Source: a phage
Assembly: GCA_025823825.1 (NCBI GenBank)
Contig: GCA_025823825.1_4720.1
DNA length: 64,000 nucleotides
Strand: one strand, 5' to 3'
Within the stretch, counting starts at the first letter, position 1. Each line of letters starts with the position of its first letter. Below the pieces are notes generated by a model that was given only the letters and a program-made list of their open reading frames with translations, did not search any database and was not told the origin of the DNA. Below, one piece after another: positions 40,995-47,075 of this stretch. The translations under genes and the position numbers were made by a program.

Positions 40995-41396
40995 TTATTT
41001 AAAAATGTATTCATATCCGAAAGTCGTCGCTGACCAGACCCGGATAGATGATAGTGTTCCGCCACGATAAAACGTTTTTGTAAACTCCATATCCTGGACA
41101 ACACGATAATAAACACGTCCGATAATACGCACGATAAGGTTTCGTGATAACGATCTCTCCTCGCAGTATTCATCGATAAAGTCATCGTCGATATCCGATA
41201 AGACAACATCCGCAATTTCTTGCAGTAGATTCCTCATCAGCATCTGCCTTCCTTCGGTACCCCACCCAGACAAACAGTAATCGTCTTCTGCCTGACTATA
41301 GATGTCGTTAACCGCCTGTTCGAGCAGTTGCTCAAGATAGTAGTCATCGCGTTTTATAACGTGGCGACGGCGCTCAGTGGCGTATTTTTCCATCCT
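40995..41396 (-). CDS. hypothetical protein
   Basis: Track ORF 40995..41516 overlaps upstream gene; internal start near 41396 (MEKYATERRR) assumed. Confidence 0.4.
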   Translation of the reverse strand, partial: RMEKYATERRRHVIKRDDYYLEQLLEQAVNDIYSQAEDDYCLSGWGTEGRQMLMRNLLQEIADVVLSDIDDDFIDEYCEERSLSRNLIVRIIGRVYYRVVQDMEFTKTFYRGGTLSSIRVWSATTFGYEYIFK

Positions 41397-41842
41397 GTGT
41401 TTCTCTTGTTCGGCGTATGTATTAACGACGCCACAGTCTTTTCTGGATCGTCCCACAATGCGCGACGAAAACTGGATACTACCATAACGGTAGGATAGAT
41501 TTGTACAACCTCCCATCCGTAACGATGTGCGTTAGTCGTACGTCCGACATTGAACAGACATAACTGATTTAAGAAACAGAGCTGCATCTTCGTAAACAAC
41601 ACCATGTCTTCACGTTTAACGTATCCGAGGATATACGCATTCTCGAACGCCTCGCGTGACAAGACGGGACGATTAAGATACCGCAACGACAGTACCAACA
41701 ACGTTGTTATGCGCAACGGATCTTCTGGGTCATTCATGGTGCTCAGCTCTGCTTGTAACCAGTCAGGGATAGTAACCGTCAGACGATAGGTATCTGTTCC
41801 ACGATCAACCACATTCAATGTTGAAAAAGGCAACATATCCAT
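41354..41842 (-). CDS. hypothetical protein
   Basis: 162-aa ORF. Confidence 0.45.
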   Translation of the reverse strand: MDMLPFSTLNVVDRGTDTYRLTVTIPDWLQAELSTMNDPEDPLRITTLLVLSLRYLNRPVLSREAFENAYILGYVKREDMVLFTKMQLCFLNQLCLFNVGRTTNAHRYGWEVVQIYPTVMVVSSFRRALWDDPEKTVASLIHTPNKRNTGWKNTPLSAVATL

Positions 41843-42299
41843 GAATTCCTTCTAGCTCGAGGTTGTTCTCGCCGGTCTTCGGTAATAACCCACTGGCCGT
41901 TAACATCTGTGTCATCGAGTAGTCAAAGCACGGAAATATCAGGTTAACGGTTTCCTGGATCGCGTCAACATAACTATAAATGGCTTCATAATACTCACCG
42001 TCATGATCCACGCTAACCAGTTCCTGACACAGTTCTTCGCTTATCATTTCATATACCGGCGGATACCACGATTGAAATGGTCGCTGCATACGTAACGACC
42101 AGTACTCGTACGTCGTATACTGAAGCACGTCATAAGCCGATACATTAATGCGGTCGAAGAAAGCATACTTGTCCATATGCTGATACAACATCGCCAGTAC
42201 GGTTTCCAAGCACACCGATATCCGCACGCCATCATCTTTCCCGTTAAGAAAATTAGGTTTCTGCCGATAACGCACAAATGCCGACGGCTTTGATTGCAT
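41805..42299 (-). CDS. hypothetical protein
   Basis: ATG at 42299 (MQSKPSAF) overlaps the upstream stop as TAATG. Confidence 0.45.
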   Translation of the reverse strand: MQSKPSAFVRYRQKPNFLNGKDDGVRISVCLETVLAMLYQHMDKYAFFDRINVSAYDVLQYTTYEYWSLRMQRPFQSWYPPVYEMISEELCQELVSVDHDGEYYEAIYSYVDAIQETVNLIFPCFDYSMTQMLTASGLLPKTGENNLELEGIHGYVAFFNIECG

Positions 42300-42784
42300 T
42301 ATTCCACCACCAACCATAACGTCATACTCGTATCTAACGTAAAATTGAAATGCCACCAATCTTCTACACGTGGAATCCACGTACGAAGGATTTGGTTAAC
42401 TTCGCTTCGCATCACCGATAAACGACAACGAAAGTCGAACTTCTCATCATGGCCATAGTCTTCATGCATGAAAACTTCATCCAAAACGAACTCAAGTTGC
42501 ATGTCGACATCACGGCCAGAGATATTCCGTTTGTACAAATACAACTCAATCGTGTCGTAAAGCAACGTGTGAATATCATAATTTCCGTTCGGTGAGAAAT
42601 AAGGTAATCGCTCATCGAGCATCGTAAACAGATATTCGCTGTAGTTTAATAACGGGATGATGTACCGACGCCCTGTCTGTGGTGTGCGAATATGTATCGA
42701 AACCTGACTTGGGCGCGGAATAACCGACGGCTTAGAATCGTCTCTCTGAAATTGCTCTAAAGATCGCAACAAAGGTGGCCGCAT
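42299..42784 (-). CDS. hypothetical protein
   Basis: N-terminal about 65 aa of track ORF 42299..42982 look non-protein-like; internal start near 42784 assumed. Confidence 0.4.
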   Translation of the reverse strand: MRPPLLRSLEQFQRDDSKPSVIPRPSQVSIHIRTPQTGRRYIIPLLNYSEYLFTMLDERLPYFSPNGNYDIHTLLYDTIELYLYKRNISGRDVDMQLEFVLDEVFMHEDYGHDEKFDFRCRLSVMRSEVNQILRTWIPRVEDWWHFNFTLDTSMTLWLVVE

Positions 42785-43361
42785 TGTAACTCTCCAACGC
42801 CCAATTGTAAGGCCCTTCCAACATGTGTTCCCATACGTGAATAAACTCACTACCGAAGACAGGCTCCAGCGCCATGGTGAGATTCGTAAGTTCTGACGCA
42901 GCCGCATGGTAAGCATCAACATGTCTTTCCATTGACGGATCGTCTTCATTGAAAATACGTTCTGTGTCGCCAGCCCGTTCAATAAGTTCGGTAATGAGAT
43001 CTGTCCATGTCTCGTGACACGTCATCATTTCCTGTTCTCGACTTAGTATGCCGATGTCTGCGTGGACGCTGGACTCGAACCGGTCTAAAAGGACCCGAAG
43101 AACGTGCACCTTGTCGATGTATTTCACCGTTATCCAAGAAAGCGGTTGCCATCGACTCAGCATCCATCCGGTACTCGGGAACCCCAAACTCATATAGTAC
43201 GGGTTGCACGGGACCGAAGACGGAGCGGCGTTGTTTAAATCGTTCCTTAAGGGCAAGGCCTTGTTTAATGTAAATGGGTTCATTGGCGAGTTGTTTCGCT
43301 TTTCGTTTCGCGTGAGCCAATCGAAGTTCTTCCAATTGCCCAAGCCATTCAAATTGTTCAT
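42732..43361 (-). CDS. hypothetical protein, possibly the 3' part of a frameshifted gene
   Basis: First about 80 aa look non-protein-like, remainder protein-like; see finding. Confidence 0.4.
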   Translation of the reverse strand: MNNLNGLGNWKNFDWLTRNEKRNNSPMNPFTLNKALPLRNDLNNAAPSSVPCNPYYMSLGFPSTGWMLSRWQPLSWITVKYIDKVHVLRVLLDRFESSVHADIGILSREQEMMTCHETWTDLITELIERAGDTERIFNEDDPSMERHVDAYHAAASELTNLTMALEPVFGSEFIHVWEHMLEGPYNWALESYNAATFVAIFRAISERRF

Positions 43362-43956
43362 CTGTTAGCTCCTGGGGACGTTCAACAATCGCGCCAGATG
43401 GGCAGACATTGATCGTGATGTTAATTGATGGCATCGCCATCACTTGAGGGTTACTATTACGTACGCGGACAACATGTTCGGTTGCTGACTTACGATCAAC
43501 GCAATACTCTGTTTCTTGGAACTCAAATGCTTTTAACGGCGTTGGTTTTGTTTGACGTTTAGGAACGCGGCCAAGATCAACAATATAGGCATAATCGCAC
43601 ACACGTTCTATTCCGTAAATACGGTTATCCGACCAGTTCTTACCAAACAGCTTGTTGTGATGATAAGACAGATATTCGGTTACCATACCCTGGACAACAT
43701 CGAAGTCTTCTCGAAATTCAGGTTGGTACCAAATCGGGCCGAGAATATCTGCGAACGATTCATGGCGATATCGAGGATCATGTCGAGTCCATGTCATTCT
43801 CTGATTAAGATCGAAATCCACCAACAACTCGGTTAATTGCAATTTTTCCTTCGGAGAAAGCTGGCGTTGATGATGCAAACTCAGACAATCGATAAGCGGT
43901 AATGAAACCCACGATGCTAATGTGTACAAATCGATCCTGGCTAATCTCTTGGTCAT
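42979..43956 (-). CDS. hypothetical protein, possibly the 5' part of a frameshifted gene
   Basis: Protein-like for about 280 aa, then Arg/Pro-rich junk in the overlap with the next ORF. Confidence 0.4.
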   Translation of the reverse strand: MTKRLARIDLYTLASWVSLPLIDCLSLHHQRQLSPKEKLQLTELLVDFDLNQRMTWTRHDPRYRHESFADILGPIWYQPEFREDFDVVQGMVTEYLSYHHNKLFGKNWSDNRIYGIERVCDYAYIVDLGRVPKRQTKPTPLKAFEFQETEYCVDRKSATEHVVRVRNSNPQVMAMPSINITINVCPSGAIVERPQELTDEQFEWLGQLEELRLAHAKRKAKQLANEPIYIKQGLALKERFKQRRSVFGPVQPVLYEFGVPEYRMDAESMATAFLDNGEIHRQGARSSGPFRPVRVQRPRRHRHTKSRTGNDDVSRDMDRSHYRTY

Positions 43957-44047
43957 ACTCTTTTCCTAAGTCCCCATTGTTTATACACACGATATCTGGG
44001 AATAGTTAAAATATACGGCGTAAAACGAAGCAGGAGAGTTTCTGACG

Positions 44048-44368
44048 TCATTTTCTCCCTCTTCGAATACCACCGATACCTCTTTCGTCTAAGACGTCCC
44101 AAGCACGCTTTATTTCATCCTCCGTTGCTCTGGTATCTGAAGGGACAACCATAACACAGTCGTGGAATGGCCAATGTGTAGGTCTGGGGTCAGCGAACAA
44201 ATCATCCCATTCAAATGTCCATTCTTTCTTTGAGCGGTTGTAGTAGAGCGTAAGATACGTATTGGTGTATGCTGGATAACCGTGCATAACCTCAATATTC
44301 TTACGATCCAGCCGTTCCTGATTCCAATCGTTAAACCGCTTTCTTATTTTCTCCCACCATTTTCCCAT
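44048..44368 (-). CDS. hypothetical protein
   Basis: 106-aa ORF. Confidence 0.5.
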   Translation of the reverse strand: MGKWWEKIRKRFNDWNQERLDRKNIEVMHGYPAYTNTYLTLYYNRSKKEWTFEWDDLFADPRPTHWPFHDCVMVVPSDTRATEDEIKRAWDVLDERGIGGIRRGRK

Positions 44369-44421
44369 GCTTTCTCCTACGCGGCATAAAAGCCTGCCCC
44401 GAAGGACAGGCTCGATAGAAC

Positions 44422-44622
44422 TTAATAACCATCCAATTTCAATGAAGGATGGTTGACGATATGTGCGTGTTTTGCTGGGTCATATAGCTGATATGGAAAA
44501 TAGCCATGCCATTGACGACCTTGGCATTTCGTACACAAGAACTGACCAACACCTTGTCGATTCTCGTAAGCGAGTTCGGTACTATCAACATGACCGCAAC
44601 GTTCGCAAATAAACAGCGACAT
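44422..44622 (-). CDS. small zinc-ribbon protein
   Basis: 66-aa ORF with CERCGH...CTKC. Confidence 0.45.
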   Translation of the reverse strand: MSLFICERCGHVDSTELAYENRQGVGQFLCTKCQGRQWHGYFPYQLYDPAKHAHIVNHPSLKLDGY

Positions 44623-44660
44623 AGCGCATCCCCATTCACTTGAACTTTTTTGGTTCGGTG

Positions 44661-45641
44661 TTAGAAAAGCAAGAAACCGCTGTTCTTCGCTTCTGCTACA
44701 GTTTCATCACCAACTTTCGGTGCTTGTTGACGTGCGTTACGATGTTCGATGTAACGTTTCGCTTCGTCAGCGATTTGTTTGATAATACCCCCTAAACGAT
44801 CGGTACTTAAAACAAACGACGTCGCTTCACGAATCGGACTGCTTTCAGGCACAAAACCATCACAGCTGTAAATAGCGCTAACACCCATGACTTTTGTCGC
44901 GTCTTTCGGATAAAGCGTACAGAAAGCAATCGGGCTATCGTTCTCTTTCGTCCAATCGTATCCCATGAACGTATTCAGTTCGGTAATCGTTGGTTCCAAA
45001 CCGGTAACACGTGGATGGTTTAAGAAGTTTTCCAGGTCGGCGCTGTCAAGACGGCGGTTCTCGCCAGAAAACAGAACACAAAGCTGGCTAATAACAACCT
45101 GGACGTCCAGGTTGACATCCTGCTCCGATTTCCCATTTTCGCCATTCATGTGATAGCTAACAATCACCGGACGTTTCAATCCTTCTGCAGCTGCCATCAG
45201 TCCTTTAAAGGTACGATCGGCGTTGATCGTTTGACGCTCATCATCGAACGAGGCAACGATGCAACATACCACACGTTCACCACGTTCCAGCAGGTTAGCA
45301 ACCAACGCAGGACCGGCAACAGAACCTGAACCACCGCTCAAACTAAAGACCACGATATTAAATTTACCTGGCGTATGCTTATTGAGAATACCTGGGATTT
45401 GCGAGCAGATCAGTTCAGCGTTCTCGTCGCGCTTCTTACCAGAACCGTCTAACTCACGACCGGCCGCATCTTTAAAGATGTAAATATGATCGTCGTCCAG
45501 TGTGCTATCGCGTAGGTTAGCGCGGCTGGTATCAACATACGTCATGCTGTGTAATCCTTTCGCGACTTCGCCTTCAAATGCTGAGCCGATTTCGCCACCA
45601 CAACCACCGACAGCCCAAATATGTACTTGGTTCTCTTGCAT
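44661..45641 (-). CDS. phuZ: tubulin/FtsZ-like GTPase PhuZ
   Basis: AVGGCGGEIG near N-terminus and tubulin signature FSLSGGSGSVAGP (~ PhuZ GGGSGSVLGP); 326 aa with C-terminal tail; AGGAG RBS. Confidence 0.8.
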   Translation of the reverse strand: MQENQVHIWAVGGCGGEIGSAFEGEVAKGLHSMTYVDTSRANLRDSTLDDDHIYIFKDAAGRELDGSGKKRDENAELICSQIPGILNKHTPGKFNIVVFSLSGGSGSVAGPALVANLLERGERVVCCIVASFDDERQTINADRTFKGLMAAAEGLKRPVIVSYHMNGENGKSEQDVNLDVQVVISQLCVLFSGENRRLDSADLENFLNHPRVTGLEPTITELNTFMGYDWTKENDSPIAFCTLYPKDATKVMGVSAIYSCDGFVPESSPIREATSFVLSTDRLGGIIKQIADEAKRYIEHRNARQQAPKVGDETVAEAKNSGFLLF

Positions 45642-45705
45642 GTGAACTCCTAACTTAATATGTATTTAACGCACAATGAATCTTTCTTTGCTAAAGGGGT
45701 GACCC

Positions 45706-46548
45706 ATGGGTGCTATTGACTACAGTGTAGATCGTATCTGTCGTACAATACCGGCAGATATCCTACAGTATTGCTATATCGATCGTTACGACTGGCGTAA
45801 TCGCTATCCTCGTTCCGTAGAAGACATCATTACCGATTGGGTAATCCGTAAACGGGTTATCGGTGACATCGATATCTACGGGGGACTACAAACCGTTATT
45901 CCCCTTGACGATGCAGGTGTCACTATCGAAGAAGTCACCATTAACTGTTATGTTTTCCATATTCCGTTGGAAGCCACGCAGGGACGTTACATCACGTCCG
46001 CATTATCCATTATCTCAGGAAGCGTGAACAACTACGGAATAAACTATAACGGTCAATGGGGCGCTTTCAACCAAACCCAGTTTCAACGTCAGCTTTGTGG
46101 GTGGAACCCTGCAAGCAACACGTTACAGCAAGGGATGAACGCGTTCGGTCCCATGAACGTTCTTAGTACAGCCAACGTCGACATCATCGCCCCTAACACC
46201 ATCATGGTGAACAACGTCACGCCTGTACAATTTCCCCTGAGCCTACGCTGTTTCCTTGCCCACGATCCAGAACTCACCAACCTCAGCATGGAGGTTTGGA
46301 ACGACTTCTACAAACTCTGTTTATACGCCACACAAAGTGACATCTACAACAGAACCGTTATCCGTCTCGATAGAGGTGTTACAGCACAAGGACAAGAAGT
46401 CGGTGCATTCAAGGAATACATCGATCGCTTTGCTGATGCTGAAAACACGTACCAAGAATTCCTGAACGAAACGTGGGCGGGCGTTGCTGCCTGGAACGAT
46501 CCACAAACTAAACGTCGTGCTATTCGACTACAAACCGGTTACTTCTGA
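45706..46548 (+). CDS. hypothetical protein
   Basis: 280-aa plus-strand ORF followed by a stem-loop terminator. Confidence 0.55.
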   Translation: MGAIDYSVDRICRTIPADILQYCYIDRYDWRNRYPRSVEDIITDWVIRKRVIGDIDIYGGLQTVIPLDDAGVTIEEVTINCYVFHIPLEATQGRYITSALSIISGSVNNYGINYNGQWGAFNQTQFQRQLCGWNPASNTLQQGMNAFGPMNVLSTANVDIIAPNTIMVNNVTPVQFPLSLRCFLAHDPELTNLSMEVWNDFYKLCLYATQSDIYNRTVIRLDRGVTAQGQEVGAFKEYIDRFADAENTYQEFLNETWAGVAAWNDPQTKRRAIRLQTGYF

Positions 46549-47075
46549 TTAACGACAGCTTCCTCCCTCGGTGTTTTCGAGGGAGGTATTTGCCGTTTGA
46601 AGACTTTCAGTACGTTCGCAAATTCAGCAGCAATAATACAGGCCGAGGTTGATAGCTTATTACTGAAAATGAGATCGTCCGGTAAACAATCGAACTGAAT
46701 ACCGTATTGCGTCTTTGTCTCATCAACGATCAATGACGGTGTCGATCTTGTCTTCGCGATGTCGGTGATATACAAACGTAAAAATAATTCACCGTCTTCG
46801 CTATCCATAAAACGATAGGCGTTACCAGAAAACGCAACACATGGCGTAACGATAAATTGAACACGATCGTCGGTCGGATGGATATTTAACCAACGTTCGA
46901 TATCACTGCTACTCACATTTTGCATATTTACTACGGTAAAAGCAAATAGCGTATCATGATGTTTGGAATAATGCAGCACATACGCCGCACCTTTCTTTTT
47001 GTGAATCCCTTCAATGTATTCTATTGTCGTATAGCCGGATTTATATAGCTTTGCTTTCGGTTTCTCACTCATCAT
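46539..47075 (-). CDS. hypothetical protein
   Basis: Start near 47075 (MMSEKPK) assumed; 3' end converges on the plus gene and runs through the shared hairpin. Confidence 0.45.
   Translation of the reverse strand: MMSEKPKAKLYKSGYTTIEYIEGIHKKKGAAYVLHYSKHHDTLFAFTVVNMQNVSSSDIERWLNIHPTDDRVQFIVTPCVAFSGNAYRFMDSEDGELFLRLYITDIAKTRSTPSLIVDETKTQYGIQFDCLPDDLIFSNKLSTSACIIAAEFANVLKVFKRQIPPSKTPREEAVVNQK
46562..46598 (+). terminator. terminator-like hairpin at convergent gene junction
   Basis: CCTCCCTCG-GTGTTT-CGAGGGAGG followed by T-rich TATTTGCCGTTT. Confidence 0.5.

Follow-up and report, generated by a model that had tools for sequence, protein, structure and literature searches.

An unusually long and well-conserved out-of-frame overlap between two hypothetical genes of a Goslar-like phage

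Long out-of-frame overlaps between genes are known to arise through overprinting, as in genes A/B/K and D/E of phage phiX174 and in the overprinted ORFs of RNA viruses, and the younger overprinted frame typically encodes a disordered, compositionally biased peptide. A 0/+1 relationship between two frames is also found in programmed +1 frameshifting, which in the Escherichia coli prfB gene takes place at CUU UGA C with the help of an upstream Shine-Dalgarno-like stimulator; +1 shifts have likewise been reported for the capsid and tail genes of Listeria phage PSA.

The adjacent genes gp237 and gp238 of Escherichia phage vB_EcoM_Goslar and its relatives can be compared with both kinds of system. 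Like the phiX174-type overlaps, they have one DNA read in two frames with synonymous variation suppressed in both, and one of the encoded segments is disordered and biased, here the basic tail of gp237; the extent of the gp237/gp238 overlap is lineage-dependent. Unlike them, the extension is a C-terminal one lying on the N-terminal third of gp238 rather than a whole nested gene, and both proteins are hypothetical. With prfB and phage PSA the locus shares the 0/+1 relationship and a downstream ORF without a strong ribosome-binding site. In contrast to those systems, its re-pairing sites are neither accompanied by an in-frame stop or hungry codon nor conserved between lineages, a stimulator is lacking, gp238 has a start codon of its own, and the position of the gp237 stop varies widely among relatives. 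It is very likely that gp237 and gp238 are two independently translated neighboring genes that overlap out of frame by about 185 nt, an ordinary, though unusually long and well-conserved, out-of-frame overlap of two hypothetical genes.

The gp237-gp238 locus and its relatives

The DNA analyzed here, referred to as the window, is a 64,000-nt stretch of a phage contig (GCA_025823825.1_4720.1). Over the positions compared (41000-46000), it is 97.8% identical to Goslar, a nucleus-forming E. coli jumbo phage of the Chimalliviridae. The minus strand carries every gene around 42732-43956, and along this strand the order is the tubulin PhuZ (44661..45641), two small genes, gp237, gp238, gp239, gp240-242, an SH3-like protein, and a divergent DNA polymerase. 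The Goslar reference (NC_048170 / MK327938) matches the window in the genes gp237, gp238 and gp239, their order, their frames, and their stops. The frames of gp237, gp238 and gp239 are called A, B and C below, as are the genes.

42979..43956, minus strand: gene A, homologue of Goslar gp237 and annotated there at the same place; hypothetical protein, 325 aa plus stop
43361..42732, minus strand: maximal frame-B ORF, 209 aa, of which the Goslar annotation takes only the final 98 codons
42732..43163, minus strand: gene B, homologue of Goslar gp238, taken from ATG 43163; 143 aa plus stop
42299..42784, minus strand: gene C, homologue of Goslar gp239, 161 aa, with its ATG embedded in B
42979..43116, minus strand: Arg/Pro-rich C-terminal tail of A (RQGARSSGPFRPVRVQRPRRHRHTKSRTGN...), encoded wholly within gene B but in the alternative frame

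The first-pass annotation of the window had described two overlapping ORFs of 325 and 209 aa, and this description is confirmed: they lie on the minus strand at 43956..42979 and 43361..42732, respectively, with frame B being the +1 frame of A (43956-43361 = 595 = 3n+1). It had also noticed that the longer ORF turns Arg/Pro-rich late, and the onset of the tail indeed falls at residue 281 (codon 43116..43114). Its view that the shorter ORF has a junk-like start was borne out as well: the first ~50 frame-B codons vary freely among relatives without amino acid constraint, and nearly every substitution there that is synonymous in A alters the frame-B residue, so these upstream codons are not coding.

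Two sets of relatives were available for comparison. The Goslar-clade set comprises 15 independent assemblies, among them the genome of the Goslar isolate and 13 further ones (L002-L006, L010-L017) at 88-98% identity. The deep lineages are represented by four assemblies, namely L007, L019 and L020, which form one lineage (L020 being a fragment), and L008. The syntenic contigs L007 and L008 carry PhuZ, DUF7484, SH3DP and the divergent polymerase, and the A homologues of the deep lineages are 28-33% identical to A at the amino acid level (33% in L007, 30% in L008). Two proteins, P0007 and P0008, are distant homologues of A. A tblastn search of 50,697 phage records matched Goslar alone, and scans of IMG/VR and metagenomes added only members of the Goslar clade. 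No family for A, B or C was found in Pfam or PHROGs. The papers checked in a literature search did not mention Goslar gp237 or gp238, or a frameshift, and the two proteins were not found in the available text and supplements of a Goslar virion mass-spectrometry preprint.

Gene A is supported by the pattern of third-position substitutions in 15 relatives. In its protein, approximately residues 1-277 are folded, and residues 281-325 form a basic, disordered tail. The AlphaFold2 model is confident for only about the first 130 residues and predicts residues 278-325 to be disordered (pLDDT 31-42). A Foldseek search of the model against BFVD returned only weak matches (E of at least 0.01) to uncharacterized proteins, many of them from jumbo phages. 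The tail is conserved to about residue 310 (down to 43028), and its last 16 codons (43027..42982) are free to vary in frame A. A core motif, RPVRxQRR, is common to the window and the L007 lineage (RPVRVQRPRR and RPVRRQRR in the window and L007/L019), and exchanges between AGA and CGA, silent in A and B alike, keep the arginines there. The C-terminal end is labile: the tail is three codons shorter in L014, eight codons longer in L019 than in L007, and absent in L008. Relative to the reference position b0 in B, defined as the GTG codon at 43127 of the window, gene A stops at:

b+49: window
b+37: L019
b+29: L007
b+4: L008, with a double stop, TAA TAA

A thus ends at four different places with B intact, which argues for two genes rather than one recoded gene. 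A paralogy of the C-terminal part of A with B, prompted by a shared VFG...EF...ES motif, was rejected when BLASTP gave no alignment.

Conservation of the shared DNA and the start of gp238

The DNA shared by the two genes is unusually invariant, as would follow from purifying selection on both of its readings. The region concerned extends somewhat beyond the overlap itself:

43028..43212, minus strand: conserved block 1, made up of the A/B overlap and about 49 nt ahead of ATG 43163

Between the window and L002, 5 of the 185 positions of block 1 differ (2.7%); the figure is 15.7% where only A is encoded and 23.4% where only B is. Within the Goslar clade, variable sites make up 8% of 43212..43128 and 7% of 43127..43028, as compared with 24% of A-only and 29% of B-only sequence. 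In the same clade, third positions of A vary in 3 of 28 codons across 43212..43128 versus 119 of 248 A-only codons (Fisher p=9e-5), and third positions of B vary in 6 of 33 codons across 43127..43028 versus 31 of 41 B-only codons (Fisher p=1.5e-6). Because the synonymous sites of one frame in a +1 overlap are first or second positions of the other, such a joint depletion is expected under selection on both proteins. The L007 clade has a matching conserved block (5% and 12% divergence versus 31% and 20%), and between L007 and L019 the stretch b-13..b+28 holds 10 synonymous and 5 nonsynonymous differences in B, and 3 and 12, respectively, in A. L007, L019 and L020 all have the overlap; its length is 185 nt in the window, 128 nt in a second lineage, and at most 47 nt in L008.

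The pattern points to genuine dual coding, in which the N-terminus of B would be overprinted by the basic, disordered tail of A. Low diversity in the Goslar clade could in principle reflect recombination tracts in part, rather than constraint, especially at a second conserved block near the end of B (0 differences; see below). L002 is deep, however, and yet shows so few differences in block 1 compared with 16-23% outside it, so that block 1 is not simply a recent recombination tract. The roughly 40-50 nt upstream of the proposed B start are also invariant in both clades, and coding gives no explanation for this. An antisense ORF of 88 aa (43007..43273, plus strand) was considered as a cause of the conservation and discarded: its ATG is lost in L002, L006, L014 and L016, a stop is gained in L002 and L016, and the frame is broken in L007.

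The length of the overlap depends on where B begins, for which the window offers these candidates:

43193, minus strand: ATG, giving 153 aa
43163, minus strand: ATG, giving 143 aa
43127, minus strand: GTG, giving 131 aa
43028/43025, minus strand: ATGATG, giving 98/97 aa, the start annotated in Goslar

Every lineage has a start codon in frame B within a window of three codons, this being ATG at b-12 in the window (43163), ATG at b-13 in L007, L019 and L020, and TTG at b-11 in L008. In L005 and L011, the codon at b-12 is ACG; these two must therefore use ATG 43193 or GTG 43127, and the start may differ between strains. Frame-B residues upstream of ATGATG are conserved across the three lineages (MLSRWQPLSWITVKYIDKVHVLRVLLDRF in the window, MVIRSFQAISWMTMKYVKPVNIIRLLLDRF in L007 and (L)NQWQPLCWVTVSYVNKLMVLRF in L008). 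Between lineages, third positions of A, which are second positions of B, differ in 52-74% of codons from b-40 to b-14 versus 23-31% from b-13 to b-1, and the pattern of differences by codon position turns to that of frame B at about b-13. The serine at b-4 is encoded by TCT in the window and by AGC in L007. The onset of the signal at b-13, the two serine codons, and the excess of synonymous differences in B within the L007 clade place the start near b-12. Frame-B conservation runs from about 43163 onward, and B looks protein-like from about 43163-43127. The first-pass annotation had the protein-like parts of the two ORFs meeting at 43110-43130, which is about right, although frame B appears to be coding some 35-65 nt further upstream.

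On these grounds, the start of B is most likely ATG 43163, with ATG 43193 or GTG 43127 possible; we infer both this choice of codon and initiation at it with no good Shine-Dalgarno sequence. The upstream starts have weak, GGA-type Shine-Dalgarno sequences, the best being TGGAT, 6 nt upstream of GTG 43127. None is comparable to those of the neighboring genes, which have AGGA, GGAG or AAGG at -12..-7. The overlap amounts to 185 nt from ATG 43163 and to 149-215 nt from the other upstream starts, in agreement with the suggestion, one of three in the first-pass annotation, that two genes overlap here by more than 100 nt.

The Goslar annotation instead starts gp238 at ATGATG, which yields 98 aa and a 50-nt overlap, as compared with the 131-153 aa suggested by the present comparison. 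If that annotation were correct, the overlap would be about 50 nt, and the conservation upstream would have to have a cause other than the coding of B, such as a regulatory element or selection acting on the A tail. This start is preceded by AGGAA, the best Shine-Dalgarno sequence among all candidates, conserved block 1 ends exactly at 43028, and L007 has a methionine at the homologous position. However, ATGATG is replaced by ACA CTG in L002-L004 and L016, and the methionine is absent in L019, L020 and L008. Downstream B remains under purifying selection even where ATGATG is lost, with nearly all changes falling at B third positions, and the upstream frame-B residues (KYIDKVHVLRVLLDRF...) are conserved in all lineages with synonymous differences. 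We therefore consider it unlikely that the two genes are arranged as annotated in Goslar; the annotated gp238 start probably lies too far downstream, by 100-165 nt, as judged from the aligned relatives. A short gp238 isoform initiated at ATGATG may nonetheless coexist with the long one.

Sequence error, frameshifting and the search for recoding signals

The abutting of protein-like parts in two frames is the usual signature of an indel, and the first-pass annotation had raised this possibility. It would mean that one gene is broken by a 1-nt insertion, introduced through an error of sequencing or assembly or through a recent inactivating frameshift mutation. Against this, alignment of the window with Goslar showed no indel in 3.2 kb, and the 15 independent Goslar-clade assemblies, including the isolate genome, showed none over 1.8 kb. 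In all 14 full-length Goslar-clade sequences, A reads through to 42979 and B to 42732 without interruption, and the stops of A and B are the same in every junction-covering sequence of the clade, L014, in which A is three codons shorter, being the exception. The same 0/+1 layout is kept in L007/L019/L020 and L008 at only about 30% amino acid identity, with a B homologue in the +1 frame after A in all four. Purifying selection is seen in both frames, and in a pseudogene test the downstream frame B was not relaxed (31 of 36 variable sites were third positions). These comparative data refute an indel, to which we attach next to no probability.

A programmed frameshift, also put forward in the first-pass annotation and here in the +1 direction, deserves somewhat more consideration. 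In such a case, a shift within 43212..43165, for example at GGG G (43185) or CCC G (43212, 43203, 43179), would yield an A-B fusion of about 400 aa beside the 325-aa product. Frame B does lie at +1 of A, the candidate B starts lack a good Shine-Dalgarno sequence, neither clade varies in the 40-50 nt that precede the first conserved B codons, and the GGG G and CCC G sequences in the window are competent for re-pairing. In each of the three lineages, frame B also happens to contain no stop over the preceding 60-79 codons, though selection for such an open frame was not significant by synonymous resampling (p = 0.05, 0.16, 0.26). Yet no shift-prone site occurs at homologous positions across the three lineages: GGG G and CCC G are missing at the corresponding positions of L007 and L008, and in the window they are followed by GTT, GTG, GTA or GAG, none of which is a stop or consistently rare. 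Another sequence, TTT AGA at 43089, reads TTT CGA in L002-L004, L006 and L016. Each lineage has a frame-B start codon between b-11 and b-13 (with ACG at b-12 in L005 and L011), and the stop of A is mobile. In L008, the double stop of A only four codons past b0 makes a classic short gene overlap; A ends there in ...GDRQLR followed by the two stops, with B as a separate ORF. Such homologues, in the form of two separate proteins, were named in advance as evidence against a frameshift.

A fused product was likewise missing from the protein databases. When 1.84 billion representative proteins were searched exhaustively with HMMER, the conceptual A+B fusion matched only five of them; the A-type matches stayed within residues 1-278 of the query (ending at 252-278), and a single B-type match covered 310-407. 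No protein spanning A and B was found in this set or in the phage and contig collections searched, and two further profile searches again gave no A-B fused protein. The fused translation, whose alignment to homologues had been proposed at the outset, therefore has no counterpart matching both of its parts.

Signals of other kinds of recoding were also looked for. As already remarked in the first-pass annotation, there is no classical slippery heptamer; none stands in a useful phase within 43260..42979. B is at +1 (equivalent to -2) of A, and the two candidates for a -1 shift, TTTAAAC at 43239 and TTTGGGG at 43188, are both in phase 0, which is not the phase required. No run of about eight or more A or T residues that could support transcriptional slippage was found, the longest runs in 43260..42979 being GGGG and TTTT. 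No stable RNA structure was predicted in 43220..43020 or 42870..42725, where the minimum free energy was no better than that of shuffled sequences (z = +0.50 and +1.44), and the only Rfam match, snoZ30a, was not credible, scoring 18 bits versus a gathering score of 80 bits. With these findings, we regard programmed +1 frameshifting at this locus as improbable, more so than the annotated Goslar start.

A bolder proposal is that gp238 lacks a functional ribosome-binding site and can be made only through a +1 frame change in 43212..43165 or some other hand-over from gp237, with the conserved Arg-rich tail (RPVRxQRR) being a new functional module, for example in RNA binding or targeting. If this were true, and if the invariant stretch before gp239 acted alike, recoding or coupling would occur as a cascade from gp237 to gp239 in this operon of nucleus-forming phages. 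We think this has only a slim chance of being correct. Independently of this proposal, the ORF structure, the conservation, the start codons and the lack of shift signals are observed, and that the A tail has a function is something that we infer.

Origin of the tail and the gp238-gp239 junction

Returning to two independently translated genes, B would start at an internal +1-frame start codon within the 3' part of A, and A would continue for about 60 codons over the N-terminal coding region of B to form its basic, disordered tail. The tail probably arose by overprinting, as a C-terminal extension into the frame of its neighbor after loss of a stop, with both readings of the shared DNA now under purifying selection. 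The differing tail lengths and the freedom of the last 16 codons fit a run-on extension whose proximal part has since become constrained. Should this be so, gp237 would offer a small, clean example of overprinting, in which read-through into a neighbor gave a basic, disordered tail whose length differs in three lineages.

The same design recurs at the next junction, the start of the following gene being buried 40-130 nt inside the previous one, in the +1 frame, in three deep lineages. Gene gp239 begins at ATG 42784, within gp238 and in its +1 frame, sharing 53 nt with it; a GGAGAG Shine-Dalgarno sequence precedes this ATG. The codon falls at a homologous pair of B codons in all three lineages (AAT GCG, GAT GTC and AAT GAC), where the overlaps measure 53, 83 and 41 nt. 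This conserved +1 ATG with its GGAG Shine-Dalgarno sequence suggests that long overlaps are the norm in the operon. Here, too, the DNA is highly conserved:

42737..42854, minus strand: conserved block 2, which takes in the last part of B and the beginning of gp239 together with the 70 nt preceding it

Over its 118 nt, block 2 is identical between the window and L002, and no identical run in the 12-kb alignment of the two is longer; within the block, B third positions vary in 5 of 23 and 0 of 16 codons versus 31 of 41 (p=5e-5 and 9e-8). An extension of frame C from GTG 42850, considered as an explanation for the conservation of 42854..42785, was rejected because a stop breaks the frame in L015. 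A third such stretch precedes gp237, where the 73 nt before the start are likewise invariant. We read the invariant stretches before the gp237, gp238 and gp239 starts as translation-initiation or regulatory regions that lie within the preceding gene. A promoter-like motif upstream of gp237 (TGTATAAACAATGGGGA) was examined for recurrence and dropped, there being no other copy within the window.

These results remove a false frameshift or indel flag from gp237/gp238. They are also of practical importance, as the conserved dual-coding segment matters for any engineering or knockdown of the two genes, and synonymous recoding or truncation of the 3' end of gp237 would affect gp238. Goslar is a model nucleus-forming phage and a target of CRISPRi-ART and antisense-oligomer methods.

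One further similarity between the two overlaps was seen in the heptamer TGAGTTT, which precedes GTG 43127 and ATG 42784 by exactly 65 nt in each case. It was set aside as a shared signal because it is not enriched (14 occurrences in the window versus 10 expected); at both sites it encodes Glu-Phe.

The 5′ end of gp238 and its overlaps with neighbouring genes

The Goslar reference genome (NC_048170) gives gp238 as a protein of 98 amino acids starting at ATGATG (window 43025..43028). This pair of codons is replaced by ACA CTG in the Goslar-clade assemblies L002-L004 and L016 and by ACG ATG in L006, L014, and L015 of the same clade. Conserved coding in frame B, the frame of gp238, reaches 100-165 nt beyond ATGATG in the upstream direction, so the annotated reference gene probably lacks part of its 5′ end. 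Toward the other end of gp238 lies a 70-nt stretch immediately upstream of the gp239 start codon (42785..42854) that is almost without synonymous variation (5/23 codons vs 31/41). Within it, the gp239 frame (frame C) contains a stop codon upstream of 42784 in L015, another Goslar-clade assembly, and no unusual RNA structure was found there (z = +1.4).

Most neighbours in the downstream gp239-gp242 chain (40995..42784) are likewise joined by out-of-frame overlaps. In Goslar and its relatives these measure 1 or 19, 32, and 40 nt, compared with 185 nt for gp237/238 and 53 nt for gp238/239. Several starts in this chain differ between gene callers; gp240, for example, is called as 164 or 170 aa.

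Conserved segments and termini of gp237

A third zone low in synonymous variation was found in the interior of gp237, at residues ~186-212 (IVERPQELTDEQFEWLGQLEEL; window 43320..43400). It matches the position of LTDEQFEW, the gp237 motif best conserved across lineages, and no gene junction coincides with it. At the C-terminus, the tail is 3 codons shorter in L014, and the stop of the homologue in the deep-lineage assemblies L019 and L020 lies 8 codons later than in L007, which belongs to that same deep lineage; as judged from these natural variants, the moved stops show the extreme C-terminus of the tail to be dispensable.

Upstream, a 105-nt stretch (43925..44029) comprising 73 nt before the gp237 ATG and gp237 codons 1-10 is 100% identical to L002, against a regional average of ~15% divergence. 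L007 has a comparable TGTGTAT...AATGGGG string upstream of the probable gp237 start, and a 17-mer from the stretch had no second copy across the window. The conserved stretch may be a promoter or 5′-UTR element. The gene-called start of the L007 homologue gives 22 extra N-terminal residues (MPVCLYIRKVLCVLLMGERDII; L007 6001..6066), also carried by the called start of P0009, a gp237-homologue protein, and without counterpart in the window or in the deep lineage L008. Since this addition overlaps the AT-rich promoter-like string, the true start is probably the Met aligned with window M1.

Gene neighbourhood in deep lineages

Two genes adjoin the gp237/gp238 region:

44661..45641, minus strand, PhuZ tubulin gene, 326 aa
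~45700..46550, divergently oriented, DUF7484 gene

The gene order from PhuZ to a divergent DNA polymerase is kept in all three deep lineages. These were found only in Logan/SRA assemblies and look like undescribed Goslar-related chimalliviruses.
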